Origin: an uncultured Spirochaetaceae bacterium
GTDB lineage: Bacteria; Spirochaetota; Spirochaetia; SZUA-6; RPPD01
NCBI GenBank assembly: GCA_964634205.1
Contig: CAZWKE010000001.1
Span: forward strand, 33,325 to 97,324
Direction: 5' to 3'
Length of the DNA stretch: 64,000 bases
The notes under the pieces are model-generated. The model saw only the letters and a list, made by a program, of their open reading frames with translations, was not told the origin of the DNA and made no database searches. Every line of letters starts with the position of its first letter. Position 1 is the stretch's first letter. Position numbers and translations under genes: made by a program. Of this stretch, positions 9,003-46,469 are shown one piece after another.

Positions 9003-9147
9003 TCAAGGCCGCTGTAGTAATTTTGAGACTGCCCGCAAGGCCGGAAGCCGCCGGAATCCCTAAATCCGCCCTGGATTTTTATTCACTCGATTTATTTGAA
9101 ATTTGTTGTATAATGATAATAAAAAAGAAAGTAAAAAGGAGAAGATC

Positions 9148-12100
9148 ATGAAGTACGCATCTCTCATTATTTCACTTTTATGCCTTTTTTACCTTTCCTG
9201 TGGAAGCCATACAAAAATTGATTATGAAGATTTTATTGATACCAGTGCGGACAATTTTTCCGAAGCCATGGAGATTAAGCTCCAAGGCAGCCTGGATTTT
9301 TCGGAAACATCCATAAATTACTTTGATATAAATAAGATTGAAACCGGCGAATTTAAAATAGCCGAAGACGACAGCCCGCTTACGATCACGGACTTCGGCC
9401 CGGTAGGAGAGCTGCCCGTAGAAATGCGGCGGCCCACCATCTATGTGGTATTTTCCCATGCGATTGTTCCTTTAAGCAGGCTGGGCGCGCCCATGAAAGA
9501 ATCGCCCTACATGGAGATAAATCCCAAAATTCCCGGTGTATTTCGTTGGTACGGTTCCAAACTGCTCAGCTTTGAGCCCGAGGAATCATTTTTTACCGGC
9601 GTACAGAGAACCTATACGGTTACCGTTTCAGCGGACGTACAGTCTCTGGGTAAAAAGAAACTGGGTAAGGAACATAAATTTTCCTTTTTTAATGAATACC
9701 TGAATATCGCTTCATTCCATCCCGGAACCCCGGCCGATCAGTACAATATTAATTATAATGATGTCCCCCCGGATGTGGCACAGAACATGACCGTACGCTT
9801 TACCTATCCCGTTGAGCTTAATCTTATCCGCCGTTATCTCCGGGTTGAGTGCGATAACCGGAGTTTCGGGTTCAGCCTTTCACGACCGGAAAAAAGTAAT
9901 GATAACATCCCGGACAATCTCATCCGGAGATCGGTAATCATCACTGTACAGCAAAAGCTTCCCCAAAACAGTAAAGTAATCCTGACTATGCTGAAAGGCG
10001 CCCGTTCACGGGAAGACTGCCGGGGCACACCAAAGAATATCCAAAAGAGTTACCATACCCTGACCCCGTTTGTTTTCAGAAGAAGCGATCATTACAATTA
10101 TTCCTTTCCCCGGAGTGAGAAAGGAGATATCAATCCTGTATACCTGGTATTCTCTCATCCGCTTGCCAGGGACGATATTGAAAAATTTTTTTCGACCTCT
10201 TTTCATCTGACGAATCTAAAAGATAATATTCAGGTATGGTATAACACGGTAAAAATCTCCAACCTGCCGGTAGTCTATGATTCCAGTTATACCATTCATA
10301 TCAACAAAAACCTGAAAGATATCTACGGCCGCAGCCTGGGGACCGATCTGGAAGAGAAAATTAAGGTGGGAAAGGCGGCAAGCTATGCCTACTTTCCCAA
10401 CACCGGCACAAAAATGCTCGAATCCGAGTTCCCGCCGAAAATAATCTTTGAGTATCAGAACATATCGAGCGGCAGGTGGAAAATCGGGACGATTTATGAT
10501 CCTTACCCTTACAACGGCGTTTCCTTTCCCGACAGCGAGTTGGAGGATTTTGATTTTTCGGCGGAGGTACCCAATAAAAAGCGCTACGAGGTGGTGGACC
10601 TCTCTCCCTACCTGAACAAGTCCGGTAAGGGGTTTGTGGGGGTAGCCTGGAATTTCAGGTCCACGGGCAGAAACGGAAAGCTCTTGCGGGGGTATCAGCG
10701 GAACCTTAACCTCCAGGTAACCGATATAGGCATAACCACACGCTACGCCTATAATAAAGTCATTGTATGGGTGGCCTCGCTCTCCAGCGGAAAGCCCATG
10801 GCGGGGGCGGACGTGACCCTGCTCCGCAAACGTACGCCCAAGGCCTCTTCCCGCACCAATACACAGGGGATAGCCGTCTTCAATCTGCCCCCCGGTGAAT
10901 ACAGGAGCAAATTCTCCGATTATAACAACCGCGATTACCTGCGCATCCGGGTGGAAAAGGGCAATGATAAAGCGGAGTTCGTGCCCAACTACTCTCACAA
11001 CATGTACCATTTCGGAATCTATAATTATGAAAGACCGACAAGGATTGAAAGTCCCCGAATGGAAACCCTGCTTTTTACCGACCGCGGACTGTATAAACCG
11101 GGAGAAACGGTCACCTTCAGGGGCATAGACCGTACGTGGTCGGCCGGTACCTATTCGGTATACCGGGGACCGTACAGCATAAGCGTCAGAGAGCGAAAAT
11201 GGAAAAGCAAACCCTTCTATCAGATTACCGGCACCACCAGCGGTACCGGAGGATTTTACGGCAGTTTTAAAATACCGGATAACATGGAACCGGGGTACTT
11301 CACTATCGAATACGCGCGGGACTCCAGAAACAGGCGCAGTGTGGGGTTCCAGATTGCCCATTTTCGGAGACTGAGTTTTCAGGTTGATTTGAGTAAACCG
11401 GAGCGTGACTATTTTATCGGGGACAACCTTTCTTTCCGGGCCGAAGCAAGTTATCTGGCCGGGGGAGCAGTGGCCGGTGGTACCTACAGTTATTACTGGT
11501 TCAAACAACCGACCTATTACAAACCGCCCGGTAAAAAATGGAAGGCCTACCGATTCGGCCCTTCCGGATGGGGTTCGCAGATCAGTCTGGGTTCGGGCAA
11601 GGGGACACTTGGTATTCAGGGCACAGCGAACATCAGTCAAGAAACCACCGCGGACGGCCTGAAAGGCAAACCGTATCGCTATGGTGCGGAAATAATTGTG
11701 AACGACATCAGCCGGCAGGAAATATCCACCCGCCAGTATGTTATTGTGCATCCGGCCCGTTTTTACATCGGCGCCAAGGTGGGAAAAGATTCGGACGGCT
11801 GGTGGTCCAGTTTTGTTCCGGCAGGCAAGGCGTTTGAGGCTGAGATAGTACTGGTAAAACCTGAAGGGCAGACATATACCCGGGAAACCACGGTAAAGGC
11901 GGAACTGATAAAACGGACATGGAAACTGGCCCAACAGCAGGGCGTATACGGAAGAATAAATACACGTTACGAGATGGTGGAAGAGGTGGTACAGCGCGAA
12001 ACATTGCATATCGGGAACGGTTCCGGCAAGGTTGGCCTTACACCCAAGGACGCGGGTTCCTATATTTTACGCTTTACCGCAGCGGATACCCGGGAGCACC

Positions 12101-14994
12101 CCGTACTGACGGATGTCTATTTATACGCAACCGGAGCGTCATGGGTACGCTGGAATACCAGGAACCCCCAGGATATCGATCTTGTGGTTGATAAGGAAAG
12201 TTATAATGTGGGCGAAAAGGCCAGGGTTTTGATCAAATCCCCGCTTCCCCAGGGTGATTACCTCTTAACCATCGAACGTGAAGGAATATTTGCAGAGAAA
12301 CTCATTCATCTTGAGGGTTCGGCACAATTGATTGAGGTCCCCATCACTGAAAAATATGTTCCGATTGTATATGTCGCACTCTCAAGCTACTCAAAAAGGG
12401 AAGCAACAGCTTCCTCTTACTTTGATCCCGACCTGGGAAAACCCAAAGGCTATTTCGGGATTGTCCCCGTTCATGTCGGCACCGAGACAAAGACCTGTAC
12501 GGTGGAGATTATTCCGGGCAAGGACATTTACAAACCCGGCGAAAAAGCGGAGGTGACCATTCTGGTGAAGAAAAACGGAAAACCGTTACCGGGAGCCGAG
12601 GTTACCTTTTTAGCAGCCGACCGGGGAGTACTGGACCTGATCAACTACCATGTGCCCGATCCGATAAGTTTTTTTTACAACAGTAATAAGTTCCCCCTTG
12701 GGGTGCTGGGCGCCGACTCGCGCTCATTGCTGATAGATCCGGTCACGTATGAGGTAAAGGATCTGCAGGGGGGCGGGGGCGAGGCCGGAAAACTCCAGCA
12801 CCGCAAGGATTTTGTACCCCTGGCGGTATTCAAACCCTACCTTGTTACCGATTCACGGGGCAGGGCCGTCGCCCGCTTTACCTTCCCGGATACCCTTACC
12901 ACCTATCGCTCCACCGCGTTGGTGGCAAAGGAACAGATATTCGGTATTAAAGAACAGGAGATCATGGTACAGAATCCCATCAATGTACGCACGGCCCTGC
13001 CGCGGCGGCTGCGTGTGCGGGACACGGCGATCGCCGGGTGTGTACTGACAAACTTGAGCAAGAAAGCGTACACGGTAACCGTATCCCTGCAGCCGGATAT
13101 TCTTGGCATCCACGGACCAAAAGAAAAAAGCGTACAACTCGGGGGAGGGGAGAGTAAGGAGGTGACCTTCAATCTAATGGCTGAAAAACAGGGCGAGGCA
13201 ACCCTGGTGTTTACCATCCGTTCTGCGGTACTCTCGGAAGAGTTGGAGCACAAACTGGTGGTGGAAAAACCCCTCATTACCGAGGCTTTTACGGTCATGG
13301 GAAAAACAGAGTATAATGATAACGCGGACAAGACAAAGAAGGACGAGCTCTACGCAGAAGAGGGGGTGATCATCCCGCAGAGTATTGCCCCGGGGTACGG
13401 CAGCCTCACCATCCGTCTTGATTCCACCCGGCTGACGGCCCTGGCCGAGGCGGTAGGCTATCTCATTCATTATCCGGAAGGTTGTGTGGAACAACGATTG
13501 TCAGCCATTCTTCCCTTTATCCTGTTCGGGGACAAGCTCGAACAGTTCGGTTCGGAATACAGCAGGTACAATGCGTCGCAGCTTATTGAATCGCTCTTCG
13601 CGTTATTGGCAAAATACCAGCATACCGACGGAGGTTTTAACTTCTGGCTGGACCGCATCGGACGCTCCAGTCCCTTTGTATCCGCCAAGGCCGCCCATTA
13701 TCTTTACCTTGCGAGGGAAAGAGGCTATAAAATTCCCTCCGATTTCAATGAAAACAAACTCCTTTCCTTTTTACGAAGTTTTTACCATAGCAAATATATC
13801 AGTGATTATATCAAGATATACGCACTTTATATCCTGACACTTTTCGGTGATAATGTGCGAACGCAATTGGATACGTTCGCCGATAAGGGGGACAGCATCG
13901 GGTTGTCCGGCTATGCCATGCTTGGCTTGAGTTATTATCGGCTTGGTGATGCGGGCAGGGCCAGGACCATGCTGTCACGCCTGAAGAAGTTTACCATGGT
14001 GGGAACCCGCTCCATCGATCTTGTGGAAACCTACGAACACCGCTACTATTTTGACTCCATGGTGCAGAAGCTTGCTCTCCTGCTTATGCTTTACCAAAAG
14101 CTTGACCCGGGAAACGACATGCTGCAGCGAATCACCTTTACCCTGATGGGCAGACAAAAATACGGGTACTGGAACAATACCTGGGACACCTCCTGGGCGC
14201 TTATCTCCTACAGCCGCCTCTTACGCGGAGAAACGGGCAGCGATACAAACTTTACCGCAACCGTCAGCCTTAACGGAAAATCCCTGATCAATCATGTTTT
14301 TCAGGGGATTTCCAAAGGAAATTTTGTAAAGCGGTACGAACTGTTTCACGGCCCTCTGGCACAGTTAAAACGCAACACCCTTTTCCCCCTGCGCCTGGGC
14401 AAAAAGGGCAGGGGTATGCTGTATTACAGTGCAAGCATACGCTACGCGCTTCCCGCCGAAATCGCTCCGGCACGTGATGAGGGATTCAGTGTATTTTCCG
14501 AAATCTATGACCTTGACGGAAAAAAAGTTGAAGGAAGAAACCTTGAGCTGGGGAAAACCTACAGAATGCATACCGTCATCTCCAGCTCCAAACGGCGGAC
14601 ACTTGTAGTCTTACGGGTACCGGTACCGTCGGGGGCGGAGGTTATTGATGCCTCGTTCGTTACTTCCGGCCGCTATTATAACAAGGGCGGGGTCAATACC
14701 AGGCAGTGGGTTCGGGAGACCATCTACGGCGATCAGTTTACCTTTGTGGGGGAGGGTTCTTACTACATGACTCCCGGCGGCCTGTTCTTTGATTTTTACG
14801 GTCCCGAGCAGAAGATCCTGGACAACGAGGTGAAATATTACTTTGACGATCTGTATCGTGGGAAACAGGAAGTGACCTTTTTATTCAGAACCACCTCAGC
14901 AGGCATCTACCCGACCCCGCCCGCATCGGCAGAGTGTATGTATGAGGAGGAGGTATTCGGACGTGCACAGGGACGGCTGCTGGTGATAAAATAG
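9148..14994 (+). CDS. Bacterial alpha-2-macroglobulin lipoprotein (YfhM/A2M family)
   Basis: Lipobox LFYLSC, FTDRGLYKPGETV, thioester motif YPEGCVEQ, TFPDTLTTYR, PASAECMYEEEVFGR; AGGAG RBS before ATG 9148. Confidence 0.93.
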   Translation: MKYASLIISLLCLFYLSCGSHTKIDYEDFIDTSADNFSEAMEIKLQGSLDFSETSINYFDINKIETGEFKIAEDDSPLTITDFGPVGELPVEMRRPTIYVVFSHAIVPLSRLGAPMKESPYMEINPKIPGVFRWYGSKLLSFEPEESFFTGVQRTYTVTVSADVQSLGKKKLGKEHKFSFFNEYLNIASFHPGTPADQYNINYNDVPPDVAQNMTVRFTYPVELNLIRRYLRVECDNRSFGFSLSRPEKSNDNIPDNLIRRSVIITVQQKLPQNSKVILTMLKGARSREDCRGTPKNIQKSYHTLTPFVFRRSDHYNYSFPRSEKGDINPVYLVFSHPLARDDIEKFFSTSFHLTNLKDNIQVWYNTVKISNLPVVYDSSYTIHINKNLKDIYGRSLGTDLEEKIKVGKAASYAYFPNTGTKMLESEFPPKIIFEYQNISSGRWKIGTIYDPYPYNGVSFPDSELEDFDFSAEVPNKKRYEVVDLSPYLNKSGKGFVGVAWNFRSTGRNGKLLRGYQRNLNLQVTDIGITTRYAYNKVIVWVASLSSGKPMAGADVTLLRKRTPKASSRTNTQGIAVFNLPPGEYRSKFSDYNNRDYLRIRVEKGNDKAEFVPNYSHNMYHFGIYNYERPTRIESPRMETLLFTDRGLYKPGETVTFRGIDRTWSAGTYSVYRGPYSISVRERKWKSKPFYQITGTTSGTGGFYGSFKIPDNMEPGYFTIEYARDSRNRRSVGFQIAHFRRLSFQVDLSKPERDYFIGDNLSFRAEASYLAGGAVAGGTYSYYWFKQPTYYKPPGKKWKAYRFGPSGWGSQISLGSGKGTLGIQGTANISQETTADGLKGKPYRYGAEIIVNDISRQEISTRQYVIVHPARFYIGAKVGKDSDGWWSSFVPAGKAFEAEIVLVKPEGQTYTRETTVKAELIKRTWKLAQQQGVYGRINTRYEMVEEVVQRETLHIGNGSGKVGLTPKDAGSYILRFTAADTREHPVLTDVYLYATGASWVRWNTRNPQDIDLVVDKESYNVGEKARVLIKSPLPQGDYLLTIEREGIFAEKLIHLEGSAQLIEVPITEKYVPIVYVALSSYSKREATASSYFDPDLGKPKGYFGIVPVHVGTETKTCTVEIIPGKDIYKPGEKAEVTILVKKNGKPLPGAEVTFLAADRGVLDLINYHVPDPISFFYNSNKFPLGVLGADSRSLLIDPVTYEVKDLQGGGGEAGKLQHRKDFVPLAVFKPYLVTDSRGRAVARFTFPDTLTTYRSTALVAKEQIFGIKEQEIMVQNPINVRTALPRRLRVRDTAIAGCVLTNLSKKAYTVTVSLQPDILGIHGPKEKSVQLGGGESKEVTFNLMAEKQGEATLVFTIRSAVLSEELEHKLVVEKPLITEAFTVMGKTEYNDNADKTKKDELYAEEGVIIPQSIAPGYGSLTIRLDSTRLTALAEAVGYLIHYPEGCVEQRLSAILPFILFGDKLEQFGSEYSRYNASQLIESLFALLAKYQHTDGGFNFWLDRIGRSSPFVSAKAAHYLYLARERGYKIPSDFNENKLLSFLRSFYHSKYISDYIKIYALYILTLFGDNVRTQLDTFADKGDSIGLSGYAMLGLSYYRLGDAGRARTMLSRLKKFTMVGTRSIDLVETYEHRYYFDSMVQKLALLLMLYQKLDPGNDMLQRITFTLMGRQKYGYWNNTWDTSWALISYSRLLRGETGSDTNFTATVSLNGKSLINHVFQGISKGNFVKRYELFHGPLAQLKRNTLFPLRLGKKGRGMLYYSASIRYALPAEIAPARDEGFSVFSEIYDLDGKKVEGRNLELGKTYRMHTVISSSKRRTLVVLRVPVPSGAEVIDASFVTSGRYYNKGGVNTRQWVRETIYGDQFTFVGEGSYYMTPGGLFFDFYGPEQKILDNEVKYYFDDLYRGKQEVTFLFRTTSAGIYPTPPASAECMYEEEVFGRAQGRLLVIK

Positions 14995-18642: not shown

Positions 18643-19452
18643 GTGAATAAAGATGTAACCGATTCGGTAAAAATTTATTTTATAGAACCCATCGAAATGA
18701 TCTCAGTAGTCATCGATACATTAATCAAATTAAACTTTGAGGCATATTCCATTTCGGAAATCTATAAACATAAACTTATTTCCGTCTTAAAAACAAATCC
18801 CCGCAGCGTTGTGTATATCTGTGTAATGAGTGATTCAAGCCTGGATGAATGGATGGAATACCTTGATGAGCTGCAGAAACTCACGGAAGTCCAGCTCCAG
18901 GTAGGTGCCTTCATCTACAGTAAAATGCCTTTTGACGCTAAAATACGCTTTCTGGAAAGGGGTATTGCCACGATTCCCTTTGAAAGTCTGAAACTCCATA
19001 CACTACAGACCCTGAAAAAAATCCTGACATATTTTGAGGCCGGTGGAAAGAAAAAATATGTATCTGCTCCGACCTCCGGTATCTGCCAGGCGTATTTCAA
19101 GATAAAAGGGCAGCCGACCCAATTACATGCCGACATTCTCTCACTCTCGGTATTTGCTTTTTCCTGCAGGATTAAACAACAGGACCGGCTTCATTTCGGC
19201 ACCGGCGCTTATTACCGGGACGTCACACTCTTGCTTCGTGGTCGCCGTGTGGGTATTTCCGCCCAGTTTATCGGTTTCGGTAAGGACAATCCTCATATTG
19301 GAATCTTCAAGATAGTTGTTGCTTCAACAGAAGGTGCCGCCGGCGGATATCATAATCAACTTCCCCATGATGTAAAGAACAAACTCTATGCTGCCGTGAA
19401 ATCGTTTTTAAAAGACAATTTAAAAAAGAAAATCGATGCAATTCCCGATTAG
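18643..19452 (+). CDS. Hypothetical protein: receiver-like N-terminal fold plus a degenerate PilZ-like C-terminal domain
   Basis: KKKYVSAP and DILSLSVFAFSC resemble decayed RxxxR and D/NxSxxG motifs; 31 nt downstream of HD-GYP. Fold call is inference. Confidence 0.5.
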   Translation: MNKDVTDSVKIYFIEPIEMISVVIDTLIKLNFEAYSISEIYKHKLISVLKTNPRSVVYICVMSDSSLDEWMEYLDELQKLTEVQLQVGAFIYSKMPFDAKIRFLERGIATIPFESLKLHTLQTLKKILTYFEAGGKKKYVSAPTSGICQAYFKIKGQPTQLHADILSLSVFAFSCRIKQQDRLHFGTGAYYRDVTLLLRGRRVGISAQFIGFGKDNPHIGIFKIVVASTEGAAGGYHNQLPHDVKNKLYAAVKSFLKDNLKKKIDAIPD

Positions 19453-39404: not shown

Positions 39405-39443
39405 ATAAAGGATTCTCCACTTTATCTGCAAAAAATTAACAGG

Positions 39444-39669
39444 TTATCCACAATAAAAAATATAACTGTAAAATTAATTATACAGTCAATGGTAACCCGA
39501 AAGATACATTTTTGTATCAAATTTCTACCAAAATCCCTAATTATATATGCTGCAAGCATTTATATTTTGAATATTAGGAAAATATAATATTTCTTTTTAG
39601 ATATAATCAAAAATACCGTTTACATCTACGCTTCTGATATGAAAAATAATTATTCACAACTTACCCACA
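39444..39669. promoter_or_regulatory. DnaA boxes upstream of dnaA (second oriC half and/or autoregulation)
   Basis: Perfect TTATCCACA at 39444-39452; TTATTCACA at 39650-39658; TTACCCACA at 39661-39669. Confidence 0.75.
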
Positions 39670-39743
39670 ACCAAAAGCTGTGTCTGTAACACGAATAAGC
39701 AGTGTACCTTATATTTTGGTTTTTTTCAAGATTAAATAATTAA

Positions 39744-40334
39744 TTATTCCAGCTTGTTTCTTCGTTTGAGCGCTTGTGAGAGGGTAAGTTTGTCCGCGTA
39801 TTCCAGGTCACCTCCTACCGGCAGTCCCAGCGCTATACGGCTGACGGTCACCCCCGTAGTTTTTATTATCTTAGCCAGGTAGAGTGCGGTCGTATCACCC
39901 TCTACGGTGGGATTTGTGGCGATAATTATTTCTGTAATTGCGGTACTTGTTATTCTGTTTATTAATTCCTTTATGCGTAAATTGTTCGGGCCGATCCCGT
40001 CGAGTGGGGAGATGACCCCCCCCAGGACATGATAGAGTCCGCTGTGTACATGAGTGGCTTCGATAGTAAGTATATCCTTGGCCTCTTCTACAACACAGAT
40101 TACGGTCTTATCGCGTGATGCATCTTGGCAGATCGGACAGGGATCGGTCTCCGCAAAATTACCGCAAATCCGACAGCTTTTCAGATTTTTCTTCAAGGCA
40201 AGTAATGCGCCTGCCAGAGACTCGGTTTTTGAATCGGGGGATTTCAGCAGAAAATATACAATCCTGGACGCGCTTTTTTTCCCCAGTCCGGGAAGTTTGG
40301 CAAGCTGGGATATTACCTGTTCAATGATATTCAC
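39744..40334 (-). CDS. recR: Recombination mediator RecR
   Basis: LPGLGKKSA, C4 zinc finger, YHVLGG, ATNPTVEGDTTA. Confidence 0.97.
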   Translation of the reverse strand: MNIIEQVISQLAKLPGLGKKSASRIVYFLLKSPDSKTESLAGALLALKKNLKSCRICGNFAETDPCPICQDASRDKTVICVVEEAKDILTIEATHVHSGLYHVLGGVISPLDGIGPNNLRIKELINRITSTAITEIIIATNPTVEGDTTALYLAKIIKTTGVTVSRIALGLPVGGDLEYADKLTLSQALKRRNKLE

Positions 40335-40661: not shown

Positions 40662-42197
40662 CTACTCTCCTTTTACTACCGTACCTTTGAATACCTTTTT
40701 AATAAGATTTTCATCGTCATCGGAGACCGGCCCTTGTCCGGTTCCGGCCTCTTTAATAAGCTCAATCTTCACCGCCAGCTGGCTCCCTGCCAGTTTGGCC
40801 GCGATTTCCGAAACCGTGGATCTTTCTCCCATGACAAACTCGGCGGAGAAAGCGTCTTTGTCCGGAAACAACAATAACAGCGTGTTGTCATGAAGTCTGC
40901 ATTCGGTGCATTTTTTTAAGGAGGAAGCAAGCGTAAGCTTTTTCTTCCCTATGGTTTCGATGATCCCTTGAAGTATTGCCTCGCCGGAAAGTGCTTTGGC
41001 CGGCTGCGGCTCCTGCGAAGCCGTGGAACGGTTTCCCTGCTTTTTTTGGGGGGCGGTACCGATATCGGCTTTGAGTTTTCGGACCGTCTCTAATAACTCA
41101 GAAGGCGTAATCAATGTCTGCAGGCTGCAAAGCCGGGACAGCAAAAGTTCCAGTTCAAATTTTTGATTCAACGAAAACCGAAAATTCCGGTAAAGGTGAA
41201 GGATGAGGTCCAAGGCTTTTTCTATCTGTTGTATTGTGAAGGTGTCGACGGTCTCCTTGGGAAAGGTATCAGGTGAGCACCCTAGGAGTGATTCCTTTGT
41301 AATCCCGCTTTTTAGAAAAAGAAGGTTGCGAAAGTATTCCGCCAGGCCGATAACAAACTGCTCCTCGGAAATCCCCTTGCTAAGGGTGTCGTCCGTGGCA
41401 TGCAGTACCTCACGCATATCTCCCTGAGTAAGTTTCTGTATCAGTTTCCCCATCTCTTCGGTTCCGACAATACCCATCTTCTCCTGGATCTTAGCCATAA
41501 CGATATTGTTTCCTGAAAAGGAGACAATCTGATCAAACAGCGTATACGCATCCCGCAGAGAGCCGGTGGCTTCCTTGGCAATCCAGATAAGAGACTCGTT
41601 GTCAATGGTAATAGACAGGTCCTTGGAAACCTCTTGTATTTTATTTTTGATATCGGTGAGTGAAATAAGACGAAAATTAAACTGCTGACATCTGGAGCGG
41701 ATGGTCGCCGGAACTTTATGCACCTCGGTTGTGGCGAAAATAAAAACCACATGGGGCGGCGGTTCCTCGATTGTTTTCAGCAGGGCATTGAAGGCGCTGT
41801 TGGAGAGCATGTGTACTTCATCGATAATGTATACCTTGTAGCGAAAACTACTCGGAGCAAAAAGGACCTCATCGCGGATCTCCCTGACGTCGTTCACGCT
41901 GGTGTGAGAAGCCCCGTCAATCTCGATCACATCGAACGATCTGCCCTCATTAATCGCCGTACACGAATCACAGGCCCCGCAGGGATTTGCGGTAAGCCCC
42001 TGTTCACAGTTTAATGATTTGGCCATGATTCTGGCGGCAGATGTTTTTCCCACCCCTCGGGGACCGGAAAAAAGATACGCATGGGCCACCCGTTTTTGCA
42101 CTACTGAATTTTTCAGAGCGGAAACAATAAACTCCTGCCCCACTAATTCATCAAATGTCCTGGGTCGTTTTTTTATCGCGGTTACTTCGTAGGTCAT
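40662..42197 (-). CDS. dnaX: DNA polymerase III subunit gamma/tau
   Basis: RPRTFDELVGQ, GPRGVGKTS, DEVHMLS, LLKTIEEPP, SRCQ. Confidence 0.98.
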   Translation of the reverse strand: MTYEVTAIKKRPRTFDELVGQEFIVSALKNSVVQKRVAHAYLFSGPRGVGKTSAARIMAKSLNCEQGLTANPCGACDSCTAINEGRSFDVIEIDGASHTSVNDVREIRDEVLFAPSSFRYKVYIIDEVHMLSNSAFNALLKTIEEPPPHVVFIFATTEVHKVPATIRSRCQQFNFRLISLTDIKNKIQEVSKDLSITIDNESLIWIAKEATGSLRDAYTLFDQIVSFSGNNIVMAKIQEKMGIVGTEEMGKLIQKLTQGDMREVLHATDDTLSKGISEEQFVIGLAEYFRNLLFLKSGITKESLLGCSPDTFPKETVDTFTIQQIEKALDLILHLYRNFRFSLNQKFELELLLSRLCSLQTLITPSELLETVRKLKADIGTAPQKKQGNRSTASQEPQPAKALSGEAILQGIIETIGKKKLTLASSLKKCTECRLHDNTLLLLFPDKDAFSAEFVMGERSTVSEIAAKLAGSQLAVKIELIKEAGTGQGPVSDDDENLIKKVFKGTVVKGE

Positions 42198-42231
42198 AGC
42201 ATAGTATACAAAATATAATAGAATTTAAAAA

Positions 42232-42355
42232 CCCCTTTAGTGCTCACCAAGCTGATTGCAGCTCATTTACCATTCGCTTACCGCTGCTACCTTCCGGTCC
42301 TGACGGAGTTGGGCGACGGCAAATAGTGCAGAGCCTGGATAATACACTAAAGGGG
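42232..42355 (-). ncRNA. ffs: Signal recognition particle RNA (4.5S/SRP)
   Basis: Minus strand carries TCAGGACCGGAAGGTAGCAGC (domain IV); the ends CCCCTTTAGTG/CACTAAAGGGG pair; directly upstream of dnaX. Confidence 0.93.
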
Positions 42356-42357
42356 AA

Positions 42358-42445
42358 CGGAGAGAGAGGGATTCGAACCCTCGGTACCCGGGTAGAGTAC
42401 ACACGCTTTCCAAGCGTGCACCTTCGGCCTCTCGGTCATCTCTCC
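42358..42445 (-). tRNA. tRNA-Ser(GGA)
   Basis: Anticodon arm CACGC-TTGGAAA-GCGTG, normal class II arm, discriminator G. Confidence 0.96.
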
Positions 42446-42492
42446 TCATGCTGTCAAAAAGCAATTAATGTGTTTCCATCTACTTGTTTTTG

Positions 42493-42633
42493 CGGAGAGA
42501 GGGGGATTCGAACCCCCGGCCCCTCACCAATTACATGGGGTATCAGCCGCCGAATTAAGTGGCCCTTCCCATGTATTTGATGAGGGGCAACGGTTTTCGA
42601 GACCGCCCGATTCAACCGCTCTCGCATCTCTCC
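42493..42633 (-). tRNA. tRNA-Ser(CGA) with a 72-nt extended variable arm (141 nt total)
   Basis: GGAGAGA/TCTCTCC acceptor stem, G discriminator, anticodon arm GCGGT-CTCGAAA-ACCGT and T arm GGGGG-TTCGAAT-CCCCC all intact. Confidence 0.9.
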
Positions 42634-42642
42634 GTAAGAATT

Positions 42643-42716
42643 TGTGCCCAAGAGGACTCGAACCTCCGGCCTTTAGATCCGCAATCTAACGCTCTATCCA
42701 GCTGAGCTATGGGCAC
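42643..42716 (-). tRNA. tRNA-Arg(GCG)
   Basis: Anticodon arm TTAGA-TTGCGGA-TCTAA; GTGCCCA/TGGGCAC acceptor stem. Confidence 0.95.
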
Positions 42717-42725
42717 AGTAAAAAA

Positions 42726-42813
<88 letters not shown>

Positions 42814-42824
42814 TTTGTATATGA

Positions 42825-42909
42825 CGGAGAGAGAGGGATTCGAACCCCCGGTGAGTTGCCCCACAACGGTTTTCAAGACCGCCTCCTTCAACCACTCGGA
42901 CATCTCTCC
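42825..42909 (-). tRNA. tRNA-Ser(TGA)
   Basis: Anticodon arm GCGGT-CTTGAAA-ACCGT; class II arm. Confidence 0.96.
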
Positions 42910-42942
42910 GTATGCTCCATATATGGATTTGCAAACAGTATA

Positions 42943-42971
42943 ACTATACTCATGCGTATTACATTTGTCAA
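42943..42971 (-). promoter_or_regulatory. Sigma-70 promoter of the tRNA-ffs cluster
   Basis: TTGACA-N17-TATAGT, about 33 nt upstream of tRNA-Ser(TGA). Confidence 0.8.
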
Positions 42972-43022
42972 TAAAAATGAGTTTGAATGATCGTGTCGGC
43001 CATGCCGCCACCGTCTGACGAG

Positions 43023-43892
43023 CTACCCGATATTCTTGCTGATAATATCATAAATTCTATCCAGGTCGTCGGCGGAAAAATAACTGATTTCAATCTTGCC
43101 TTTTTGCAGGGTCCCCTTTATAGATATTTTCGTGCCCAACGCATTAATAAACTTTTCTTTAATGTCCTCAATCTCCGGTATTTTTTCGGGCTTTTCAGGA
43201 AGACGCGGCTCGGTTTTTTCTTCAGGTTTCCCCTGGAGTTTTGCGGCCATGGATTCGGCTTCGCGCACTGAAAGGAATTTATCGACGATGCTGTTATAGA
43301 GAATGATCTGCCCCGAGGTGTCCTCAACCGACAGAATGGCGCGTGCGTGGCCCGCGGATATTTTCCCCTGCTGCAAGCCATCCTGCATCATCTGCGGCAG
43401 CTTTAACAGACGGATACTGTTGGCGATTGTAGAGCGGCTTTTCCCCAGGTGCCCGGCCAATTCATCCTGGCTGACCTTTGTCAATTCCAACAAATTTTTA
43501 TACGCGCGAGCCTCCTCGATGGGAGTAAGATCCTCTCTTTGTATATTCTCGATCAGGGATATTTCCAGTTTCTCGGCTTCGGAAAAATCTTTGATGATTA
43601 TCGGCAGCTTGTCTAATCCGGCCATTTTTGCCGCACGATAGCGCCTTTCCCCCGCGATTATAATGTAGGTCCGGTCTGCTGTTTGCTCTACCAGTATAGG
43701 CTGCAGCACACCCTTGGCCTTGATTGAATCAGCCAATTCCTTGAGACTCTGCTCACTGAACTGCTTCCGCGGTTGATTCGGGTTGGGGCTGATCGACCGG
43801 ATGTCAGCTTCTATCTGACTCCCGGTGTTTTCTTTGTTTTGGGACCCCTGGAGCAAGGCTTCGATTCCTTTCCCCAATGCTTTTTTAGACAT
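43023..43892 (-). CDS. parB: Chromosome partitioning protein ParB
   Basis: KKALGKGIEAL, PNPNQPRK, IIAGERRYRA, ENIQREDL. Confidence 0.97.
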   Translation of the reverse strand: MSKKALGKGIEALLQGSQNKENTGSQIEADIRSISPNPNQPRKQFSEQSLKELADSIKAKGVLQPILVEQTADRTYIIIAGERRYRAAKMAGLDKLPIIIKDFSEAEKLEISLIENIQREDLTPIEEARAYKNLLELTKVSQDELAGHLGKSRSTIANSIRLLKLPQMMQDGLQQGKISAGHARAILSVEDTSGQIILYNSIVDKFLSVREAESMAAKLQGKPEEKTEPRLPEKPEKIPEIEDIKEKFINALGTKISIKGTLQKGKIEISYFSADDLDRIYDIISKNIG

Positions 43893-45217: not shown

Positions 45218-46469
45218 ATGCTACGAAGCTTGTGGGAAAAAGCAAAACGCAGGTCAAGGGTGTAATACATTGGTAGGATATCCTCTTTTGAAAGGAGAAA
45301 GCACAATGAAAATACCCGAGTTTTGCCCCAATATGCTGTGTAAGCTGCACGACAAGGATAACACAAAAAAACACTGGTTTGCCAGGCACGGCAGGTATTA
45401 TACTAAAACCTTCGGGGTGGTACAGCGCTTTGTCTGTCGCTGTTGCAATAAAACATTTTCCACCCAGACACTTAACATTGATTATTACGCAAAAAAGAAG
45501 CTTGATTATCATGAGTTGGTAAAAAAGCTTGTGTCCACAAGTAGTCAGCGGGATATGAGCCGGGACTTCAAGGTATCTCTGGGTACGGTAAGGAATAAGC
45601 TCGACCGCTTGTCACGACAAGCAATGGCTCTGCACCAGACACTCAAACAAGAGGTAAGCGATCAGGCTGTGGTAGTGGCTGACGGGTTTGAAAGTTTTTG
45701 TGTGTCACAATACTTTCCCAACAATATCCATCTTTTGGCCCTGAAGGATTCCCAGTATATCTGCTATACAAACTATGTAACCATCAGGCGGAAGGGGCGG
45801 ATGACCCCTAAGCAGAAGCTGAAAAGAGAAAGGCTGGAACGGCAGTTCTGGGCCCCGTATAAGGGGATCGAGCTTGAGTTTGCTGAGGTATTGGATGAGG
45901 TAGTCCGGATCCGGGACAACTCCGTATATCCTCGGTTTACCTTCTATACTGATGAGAAACCTGAGTATGTACGGGCCATGAGCAACCATCCTCACGTCAG
46001 CAGCCTGAAACAGCGGCAGCAGCTTGTGCATGAGCAGATATCTTCCCGGAAAGCCCGAACCATCACCAATCACCTGTTTGCGGTAAACTACCTGGACAGA
46101 CAGATCAGGAAGGACCTGGCCGGGCATGTGCGGGAGACCGTGTGTTTTGCTCGTAATGTGAATGACTGTATGAACCGGCTGAACGTATATTTTATGTATC
46201 ACAATTATATAAAGGTGTTTCGGGAAAAACAGCGGCATAAAGATAAGCGGACCCATGCCGAGGTGGCGGGAATTCCTAAGGTGAGCATCCGTAAAGCATT
46301 GCGCTTCATTTTTACCAGGAGGCGATTCTTGTCCTTGGAATCCATTACCGGTTTCAATCTCCGCTTATGGCAGAGACAGTTGTTTACTCCCTTAAAACGC
46401 AGGGTGGAATATGTTCCTAAGTATGCTTTTGCTTAAATGCTCATCTCAAAACAACAAGGTTCGTAGCAC
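45218..46469 (+). mobile_element. Insertion sequence (1252 bp) with about 18-bp TIRs and a putative TA target duplication
   Basis: Left ATGCTACGAAGCTTGTGG; right (reverse complement) GTGCTACGAACCTTGTTG; TA on both flanks; one transposase-like ORF inside. Confidence 0.8.
45306..46436 (+). CDS. Transposase (zinc ribbon + HTH + DDE-like; IS1-related architecture)
   Basis: CPNMLC...CRCC, HTH SQRDMSRDFKVSLGTV, acidic motifs ADGFESF, TDEKPEY and YLDRQIR, HNYIK; AGGAG RBS before ATG 45306. Confidence 0.75.
   Translation: MKIPEFCPNMLCKLHDKDNTKKHWFARHGRYYTKTFGVVQRFVCRCCNKTFSTQTLNIDYYAKKKLDYHELVKKLVSTSSQRDMSRDFKVSLGTVRNKLDRLSRQAMALHQTLKQEVSDQAVVVADGFESFCVSQYFPNNIHLLALKDSQYICYTNYVTIRRKGRMTPKQKLKRERLERQFWAPYKGIELEFAEVLDEVVRIRDNSVYPRFTFYTDEKPEYVRAMSNHPHVSSLKQRQQLVHEQISSRKARTITNHLFAVNYLDRQIRKDLAGHVRETVCFARNVNDCMNRLNVYFMYHNYIKVFREKQRHKDKRTHAEVAGIPKVSIRKALRFIFTRRRFLSLESITGFNLRLWQRQLFTPLKRRVEYVPKYAFA

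Follow-up and report, generated by a model that had tools for sequence, protein, structure and literature searches.

Can a tRNA gene whose variable arm is a 70-nt hairpin be a working tRNA gene, and what happens to the hairpin in its transcript? The question is raised by a tRNA-Ser(CGA) gene in a stretch of 64,000 nucleotides, the whole of which was analysed and is called the window here.

A tRNA-Ser(CGA) gene with a giant variable arm

A preliminary description of this DNA placed a canonical tRNA-Ser(CGA) with a 72-nt variable region at 42493-42633, and the observation is confirmed. The gene lies on the minus strand at exactly those coordinates, and the Rfam tRNA model matches it from end to end (model positions 1-71, 45.2 bits against a gathering score of 29, E = 7e-09), with ~70 nt between anticodon arm and T arm aligned as a single insertion. 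The 72 nt resolve into a 70-nt hairpin (42519-42588) preceded by a single U and followed by a single C. The parts of the gene are as follows.

42493..42633, minus strand: tRNA-Ser(CGA) gene with giant arm, 141 nt (Rfam tRNA model and sequence; CCA not encoded)
42589..42633, minus strand: 5' body, comprising acceptor 5' strand, D arm, anticodon arm and the U preceding the variable arm (sequence and Rfam)
42567..42588, minus strand: variable arm, proximal helix, 5' strand, 22 nt (in-register pairing with 42519-42540; covaries)
42541..42566, minus strand: variable arm, distal part, with the end of the 8-bp helix, internal loop, distal helix and loop UUAAUUCG (hypervariable between lineages)
42519..42540, minus strand: variable arm, proximal helix, 3' strand, 22 nt (pairing and covariation)
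42493..42518, minus strand: 3' body, comprising C48, the T arm GGGGG-UUCGAAU-CCCCC, acceptor 3' strand and discriminator G73 (sequence and Rfam)

Apart from the size of the arm, the gene has the features of a class II tRNA-Ser. The acceptor stem GGAGAGA/UCUCUCC has 7 bp and the T stem 5 bp, the D and T loops are canonical, the D arm (CGAG/AUCG) is of the serine type, and the anticodon stem GCGGU/ACCGU carries the loop CUCGAAA with the anticodon CGA at 42597-42599. The discriminator is G73 at 42493, and the variable arm is paired with one unpaired base on each side; the normal-armed Ser tRNAs of the window and of the related loci L140, L138 and L075 share this U-[arm]-C junction. An assignment to tRNA-Sec or to the allo-tRNAs, which have 8/5, 9/4 or 9/3 architectures and UCA or other non-Ser anticodons, was rejected, as the window gene is 7/5 with the anticodon CGA.

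The arm had been described as one long hairpin, and folding recovered the same structure: from the base outward, helices of 12 and 8 bp separated by an A-A mismatch, then the internal loop AAG/GAUAC, and a distal helix closed by the loop UUAAUUCG. The predicted folding energy of the whole 141-nt RNA is -76.4 kcal/mol (z = -6.1), lower than that of any of 200 shuffled sequences. Folding, both of the single sequence and of the alignment, mis-pairs the invariant D/anticodon domain, and that region was read from the Rfam alignment and from pair counts for named structures.

Genomic setting and predicted expression

Five tRNA genes lie in one orientation here (Ser-UGA, Ser-GCU, Arg-GCG, Ser-CGA, Ser-GGA), and the giant-arm gene takes fourth place. 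After the cluster come the SRP RNA, dnaX, ybaB, recR, dnaA, dnaN and recF, and before it parA, parB (Pfam labels taken from syntenic relatives) and gyrA. This is the origin region of the chromosome in an uncultured member of the Spirochaetales; its DnaX relatives are labelled Spirochaetales, Spirochaetaceae or Spirochaetia by their sources.

42943..42971, minus strand: promoter-like site TTGACA-17-TATAGT, 11/12, 32 nt upstream of the first tRNA of the cluster
42823..42910, minus strand: tRNA-Ser(UGA), normal arm, first gene of the cluster, 88 nt (ARAGORN and Rfam)
42726..42813, minus strand: tRNA-Ser(GCU), normal arm, 88 nt (ARAGORN and Rfam)
42642..42717, minus strand: tRNA-Arg(GCG), 8 nt upstream of the giant-arm gene (ARAGORN and Rfam)
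42358..42445, minus strand: tRNA-Ser(GGA), normal arm, 88 nt (ARAGORN and Rfam)
42242..42340, minus strand: small SRP RNA (ffs), downstream in the same orientation (Rfam RF00169, 60.6 bits)
40662..42197, minus strand: dnaX (DNA polymerase III gamma/tau), the synteny anchor for fetching relatives

The three neighbouring tRNA-Ser genes, for GGA, GCU and UGA, thus have short arms, as the preliminary description had stated. Since a promoter-like site lies upstream and no terminator-like site was found in 42150-43150, the giant-arm gene probably belongs to an operon with essential RNAs. The codon UCG is used 8.3 times per 1000 codons, similar to UCA at 8.9.

Several other features of the region deserve mention. 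The A+T-rich recR-dnaA intergenic region (window 39432-39790) holds a cluster of inverted repeats (I2, I4, I12) and is a candidate replication origin adjoining dnaA. An ORF of 1963 aa lies at window 9103-14994 on the plus strand, and two plus-strand ORFs of 269 and 388 aa (18643-19452 and 45270-46436) have no Pfam match at E <= 1e-5. One sub-clade of relatives has a PhzF-family gene between parB and the tRNA cluster (L135:739-1536, L136:583-1380, L140:1-626), with an additional fatty-acid hydroxylase gene there in L140; both genes are absent from the arrangement in the window.

Recurrence in related Spirochaetales

Relatives were gathered from syntenic loci, reached through DnaX homologues, and by two pattern scans, and giant-arm genes were located in them by pattern and permissive Rfam scans. 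The same 141-nt gene is present in three other JGI assemblies (L003, L126, L128), the sole difference being one loop base that turns UUAAUUCG into UUACUUCG. This change (L003:421-442, L126 and L128, against window 42548-42555) creates a C(UUCG)G tetraloop, which is likewise found at the tip of the L054 arm.

The preliminary description had proposed a search for further long arms in Spirochaetia, and this search revealed homologous giant arms at the same position in related lineages. Altogether 12 distinct giant arms (69-103 nt, in tRNAs of 140-174 nt) come from at least 10 related Spirochaetales lineages, their sources being window/L003, L133, L132, L004, L129/L131, L005, L127, L135 (two genes), L137, L054 and L006. 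Where a locus includes dnaX, the encoded protein is between 79% and 51% identical to that of the window.

L133: arm 69 nt
L132: arm 72 nt
L127: arm 81 nt, gene cut by contig end
L004: arm 103 nt, tRNA 174 nt
L129 / L131: arm 103 nt
L005: arm at least 67 nt, cut by contig end
L135 / L136: arms 89 and 90 nt, two genes
L137: arm 88 nt
L054: arm 69 nt
L006: arm 72 nt

The scan of metagenomes required the D-arm sequence of the clade and an arm of 46-106 nt. No giant arm shorter than 69 nt was found in scans that allowed arms down to ~45 nt. Among the at least 118 matches listed from species genomes, only L006 and L054, both Spirochaetales, have genuine giant arms; 63 of the matches listed have a second T loop inside the gap and represent either a tRNA followed by its duplicated 3' end, resembling an att site, or tandem tRNAs, and those remaining among the matches listed are mostly fused partial tRNA copies or archaeal inserts. 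Viral contigs gave 115 pattern matches, none with a giant arm.

Some loci are uninformative, either with a contig that ends 95-111 nt upstream of dnaX (L001, L002, L134, L139) or with sequence masked by N (L143 and part of L006). Many assemblies break in or beside the tRNA/SRP cluster, for which the sequence common to the four tRNA-Ser genes is the probable cause, and this region is therefore under-represented in assembled genomes. At L004, L054 and L137 the contig or the fetched stretch stops inside the tRNA cluster.

Selection on the structure of the arm

The tRNA body is invariant in the clade of the window itself, and more distant lineages differ from it by compensated pairs only; the 5' body (42589..42633) has the same sequence in all clade-I relatives. 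The serine anticodon is held throughout. All ten Ser(CGA) rows have the loop CUCGAAA; where the DnaX of the source organisms is available, it is 51-79% identical to that of the window. The giant-arm Ser(UGA) gene of L135 has CUUGAAA.

Comparison of the arms points to selection as well. The first 22 arm positions pair with the last 22, in one register, in every sequence. In an alignment of 11 distinct homologous sequences with trimmed tips, 17 of the 22 proximal pairs have changed on both sides; standard pairs fill 94.6% of the cells of this helix, and sliding the partner strand by 1-3 columns lowers the value to 39-51%. None of 500 shuffles attains the observed pairing and covariation values, and RNAalifold predicts the proximal helix unaided. 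These results bear out the suggestion of the preliminary description that the arm is selected for its structure and is not a random insertion. It had also allowed for close relatives with a normal arm and neither covariation nor other examples; normal-armed relatives do exist, yet other giant arms were found as well, and the 11 aligned sequences covary.

The uninterrupted duplex is long, with 22 consecutive pairs in L132 and at least 24 in L004. Beyond the first 18 pairs the tips vary freely in size (33-67 nt), G+C content (0.22-0.65) and stability (folding z from +1.0 to -3.3), and no motif is conserved in the tips across the lineages compared. The tip of L004/L129/L131, for instance, has 67 nt at 22-24% G+C and no significant fold. 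Read from these alignments, the giant arm combines a duplex under constraint, at least about two helical turns long, with an unconstrained tip.

Probable movement of the arm between genes and lineages

Distribution and sequence of the arm suggest that it moves. L135 and L136 have nearly the same arm (89-90 nt) in the tRNA-Ser(UGA) and the tRNA-Ser(CGA) of one cluster (L135:1735-1894 and L135:2092-2252). Both the D arm and the T stem of the giant-arm tRNA-Ser(UGA) are still those of Ser(UGA), which indicates that the arm alone was copied. The likely route, judged from the flanks, is through the 19-nt and 16-nt stretches on either side of the arm that both genes have in common save for the first base of the anticodon. 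Normal arms of 14-17 nt are found in both genes of L140/L142, where the DnaX of L140 is 77% identical to that of L135, and in the genes present at the L138 and L075 loci.

Between lineages, four types of arm base can be told apart: A (GCCCGACCA...), B (GCCCAGCACUCA...), C (GCCCCUCAYCAA...) and D (GCCCCGCUA...). The window has type C, yet L005, its nearest relative by DnaX (79%), has type A; type C is found again in L135, with a DnaX only 59% identical to that of the window, and type B is seen in L127, in L054 and, with one pair changed, in L137. Arm types therefore cut across the DnaX tree, a single-gene neighbour-joining tree, and this points to a spread of the arm by homologous recombination.

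The 64-kb window contains neither a second copy of the arm nor a related hairpin family, according to inverted-repeat and pattern searches, and BLAST against plasmid and phage collections gave no match; dispersed copies of the MITE or REPIN type are absent from these sets, which are the ones covered. The preliminary description had also considered an intron or a captured mini-element. Of this idea, the movement in the manner of a cassette stands, given the discordance with the DnaX tree and the copy in the Ser(UGA) gene of L135; a self-splicing or bulge-helix-bulge (BHB) intron does not, and a repeat copy was not found in the sets searched. Taken together, we are confident, though short of certain, that the gene is real, conserved, selected and mobile by recombination.

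Comparison with known systems

The arm resembles the intervening sequences (IVS) of 23S rRNA, known from helices 25 and 45 in Salmonella, Leptospira, Coxiella and other bacteria. IVS are excised by RNase III without re-ligation, and horizontal transfer has occurred in Leptospira. Like them, the arm is extra RNA at the tip of a conserved, solvent-exposed helix, and it is missing from close homologues (normal arms in L075, L138 and L140/L142 versus 69-103 nt). In both, the ends form a long stem, here structurally conserved, around an interior of variable length and sequence. Both are distributed sporadically and without regard to host phylogeny (here a single-gene DnaX tree set against arm types), with signs of lateral exchange and spread among paralogous copies, and the host RNA would in both cases stay functional. 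The arm does not reside in 23S or 16S rRNA, as its host RNA is a tRNA, and the likeness is one of working at most, not of family membership. Excision by RNase III is an established fate for the rRNA elements, whereas for the spirochaete arms it is a proposal. The spirochaete arms also have no ORF at 69-103 nt, whereas some rRNA IVS are several hundred nt long and encode an S23p-type protein; the IVS of Coxiella is described as a selfish element of 428 nt in helix 45.

A second parallel is artificial. Masuda et al. (Nucleic Acids Res 2017, PMC5397188) engineered V-Spinach tRNA-Tyr, a 183-nt tRNA with an elongated aptamer in the variable loop that is stable in E. coli, loses 2.7-fold in aminoacylation, binds EF-Tu normally and supports growth by suppression. 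It shares with the spirochaete genes the class II bacterial tRNA and an elongated variable-arm insert of ~100 nt; the insert is an aptamer with a G-quadruplex, whereas the spirochaete arm is a plain duplex. The fusion was stated to be larger than any natural tRNA, from which it follows that a natural case was not known to its authors.

With ordinary class II tRNAs and tRNA-Sec the spirochaete tRNAs share the 7/5 cloverleaf, G73, an arm between 44/45 and 48, and the SerRS identity element. Natural class II arms measure ~10-25 nt, in contrast to 69-103 nt here, and tRNA-Sec, which is called the largest tRNA structure in reviews and primary papers, has roughly 90-100 nt as opposed to the 140-174 nt of the spirochaete tRNAs. 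Two-piece tmRNA from permuted ssrA genes, found in alpha-proteobacteria and cyanobacteria, is a bacterial precedent for a tRNA-like domain made of two chains once a segment between them has been removed. It arises by gene permutation, however, and is not an elongator tRNA, and the two-piece spirochaete tRNA considered below is a proposal. Archaeal non-canonical introns and split tRNAs also interrupt the tRNA gene outside the anticodon loop, but they need a BHB motif, a splicing endonuclease and a ligase, whereas the spirochaete arms are continuous bacterial helices.

Fate and function of the arm

SerRS identifies its tRNAs by G73, by the base of the variable arm and by the way this arm is oriented; the arm sequence and the anticodon play no part. 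Since the junction geometry is unchanged, SerRS is expected to charge the giant-arm tRNA with serine still, and UCG would then be read by it. The mechanism that we propose starts from an ordinary variable arm of 14-17 nt that, in one Spirochaetales clade, would have been replaced by a cassette consisting of a selected helix of ~20 bp or more and a freely varying tip of ~25-65 nt. Identical tRNA sequence on either side would let homologous recombination transfer this cassette from one species to another, as well as between the Ser(CGA) and Ser(UGA) genes within a cluster. Bacterial RNase III generally accepts near-perfect duplexes of 20-25 bp, and as one of two helical turns is its default substrate, the enzyme would probably cut the rod, with loss of the tip. 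The result would be a tRNA in two pieces, joined by what is left of the arm stem, by the acceptor stem and by the tertiary core, and a need for a long stem to hold the halves together would explain the upkeep of ~20 pairs. By analogy with the rRNA elements, we give cleavage by RNase III into a two-piece tRNA not quite an even chance. The whole chain, in which the window gene is a functional, expressed tRNA-Ser(CGA) with an IVS-like cassette whose rod is cut by RNase III, is our tentative first choice at the same grade, a little short of even. That bacteria have split elongator tRNAs of this kind, with the tip removed by RNase III and UCG (in some lineages UCA) read by a two-piece tRNA with a long arm duplex, we regard as possible, at a chance somewhat further below even.

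Alternatively, the rod might stay in a mature tRNA-Ser of 140-174 nt, which would be charged, carried to the ribosome by EF-Tu and used there while the rod extends into solvent. Helicity would then be selected for rigidity, folding and nuclease resistance, whether or not the rod has come to serve as a handle. The preserved junction with the core suits this reading, which we consider a serious but more doubtful possibility than cleavage. The stability of tips such as those of L003 and L054, which end in UUCG-type tetraloops, is a hint at selection on RNA folding beyond the proximal helix. The minimum of 69 nt over all arms points to a length requirement, and the absence of shorter ones would amount to a lower limit that cutting and discarding does not obviously predict. 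Against retention, near-perfect duplexes of this length are normally cut by RNase III in bacteria, and the tips have no conserved motif to bind a partner. The unstructured, A+U-rich 67-nt tips of L004/L129/L131 resemble targets of single-strand nucleases and are unlikely to persist uncut. The precedent of V-Spinach tRNA-Tyr, with its insert in the same loop, also works in both directions: a stable and active 183-nt tRNA means that removal of the rod is not required for function, but another paper (PMC7590224) rates V-Spinach fusions as having only marginal tRNA activity.

Other explanations fare worse than either cleavage or retention of the rod. Conceivably the giant arm bars the tRNA from the ribosome, and the Ser-tRNA serves aminoacyl transfer to envelope components or natural products, or has a regulatory or decoy role. 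The architecture does lie far beyond the normal size range of tRNAs, and other bacteria have dedicated non-proteinogenic tRNAs. Such a role is improbable, however: the CUCGAAA loop and the anticodon stem are invariant or covarying in the ten Ser(CGA) rows, which would be unexpected without decoding, the only Ser(UGA) gene of the L135 cluster is armed as well, and the codons UCG and UCA are in normal use.

A true intron, with the arm removed and the halves re-joined to a tRNA of normal size, would fit a defined interruption site in a tRNA gene and an unconstrained interior, but is less probable still. The arm is too small and variable for a group I or II ribozyme and matches no ribozyme family; a permissive Rfam scan of 42440-42660 yielded the tRNA and chance matches to microRNA-like hairpins only, and with an unconserved interior this led us to reject self-splicing introns and small ribozymes. 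A BHB intron, which has two 3-nt bulges around a 4-bp helix, was likewise rejected, given that the first 10-22 pairs are continuous with single mismatches at most. Moreover, bacteria have no splicing endonuclease of the archaeal type, and the ends left by RNase III (5'-phosphate, 3'-OH) are not substrates of RtcB-type ligases.

The gene could also be dead or dying from a selfish palindromic insertion of the MITE or REPIN kind, tolerated as tRNA-Ser(UGA) can read UCG. Its rod-like hairpin and the failure of standard tRNA finders to see it might be taken that way, yet this is very unlikely indeed. The body is invariant and the arm covaries over lineages that have diverged as far as stated above in DnaX, the arm is present in the Ser(UGA) gene of L135 too, and neither a second copy in the window nor a match in the plasmid and phage collections was found; conserved body, conserved anticodon and covariation rule out a pseudogene. 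The remark in the preliminary description that a CGA isoacceptor is often dispensable is weakened here, as Ser(UGA) in the L135/L136 cluster is itself armed and the CGA body and anticodon loop are invariant in ten rows. Finally, an assembly artefact, which the preliminary description had named as a danger, has a negligible chance and misassembly is ruled out: several assemblies do break near the tRNA cluster, but the gene was recovered in four independent ones, L003, L126 and L128 besides the window, and more than ten further assemblies carry homologous arms.

Giant-arm genes missed in annotation, and the consequences

ARAGORN, which the preliminary description had suggested running together with a folding program, returned the neighbouring tRNAs and missed every giant-arm gene, including that of the window and both of L135; folding gave the hairpin described above. 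Rfam at the gathering threshold also missed the window gene in a scan of the whole window, as well as most other giant-arm genes. With standard annotation such genomes therefore seem to be without tRNA-Ser(CGA), and L135 seems to be without tRNA-Ser(UGA) too, so that the decoders of both UCA and UCG appear to be missing.

We found no description of a natural tRNA with such an arm in the full-text literature, a body of text with most subscription journals outside its coverage. Within the literature searched, a tRNA-Ser with a mobile, IVS-like arm is without precedent. If the rod is retained, these would be by far the largest natural tRNAs, and ribosomes, EF-Tu and SerRS would tolerate in nature an extension of ~30 bp or more, so far known from engineered fusions only. 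If it is cut, the IVS phenomenon would extend from rRNA to tRNA; we know of no fragmented elongator tRNA in bacteria, and the spirochaete case would be the first. Either way the arm is a natural, covarying and movable cassette inside a core gene of translation, and it could serve as a scaffold for the tagging of tRNAs.

Other interrupted or repeated tRNA-Ser genes

The scans also brought up tRNA-Ser genes of other architectures. In L009, L045, L049, L062, L063 and L085 (Acidobacteria), a tRNA-Ser(UGA or CGA) is followed within ~30-60 nt by its own 3' part as a direct repeat. Direct repeats of the 3' part of tRNA-Ser, ~30-60 nt after the gene, are also present in L014, L021, L071, L107, L112, L117 and L119 and in L040 (Photobacterium). 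The repeated part comprises the T arm, or the variable-arm hairpin and T arm, plus the acceptor 3' strand, a pattern that integrative elements commonly leave on insertion at a tRNA gene; in the L014 group it includes a degenerate copy of the anticodon-stem region. Archaeal-type tRNA-Ser genes (acceptor GCCGGGG and similar) with weakly structured inserts of 52-87 nt between the anticodon and T arms were encountered in L034, L041, L092, L095, L103, L106, L038 and L047, of which L034 and L041 are Bathyarchaeota, L038 Nanohaloarchaea and L047 Aenigmatarchaeota by title. These inserts are presumably non-canonical BHB introns.
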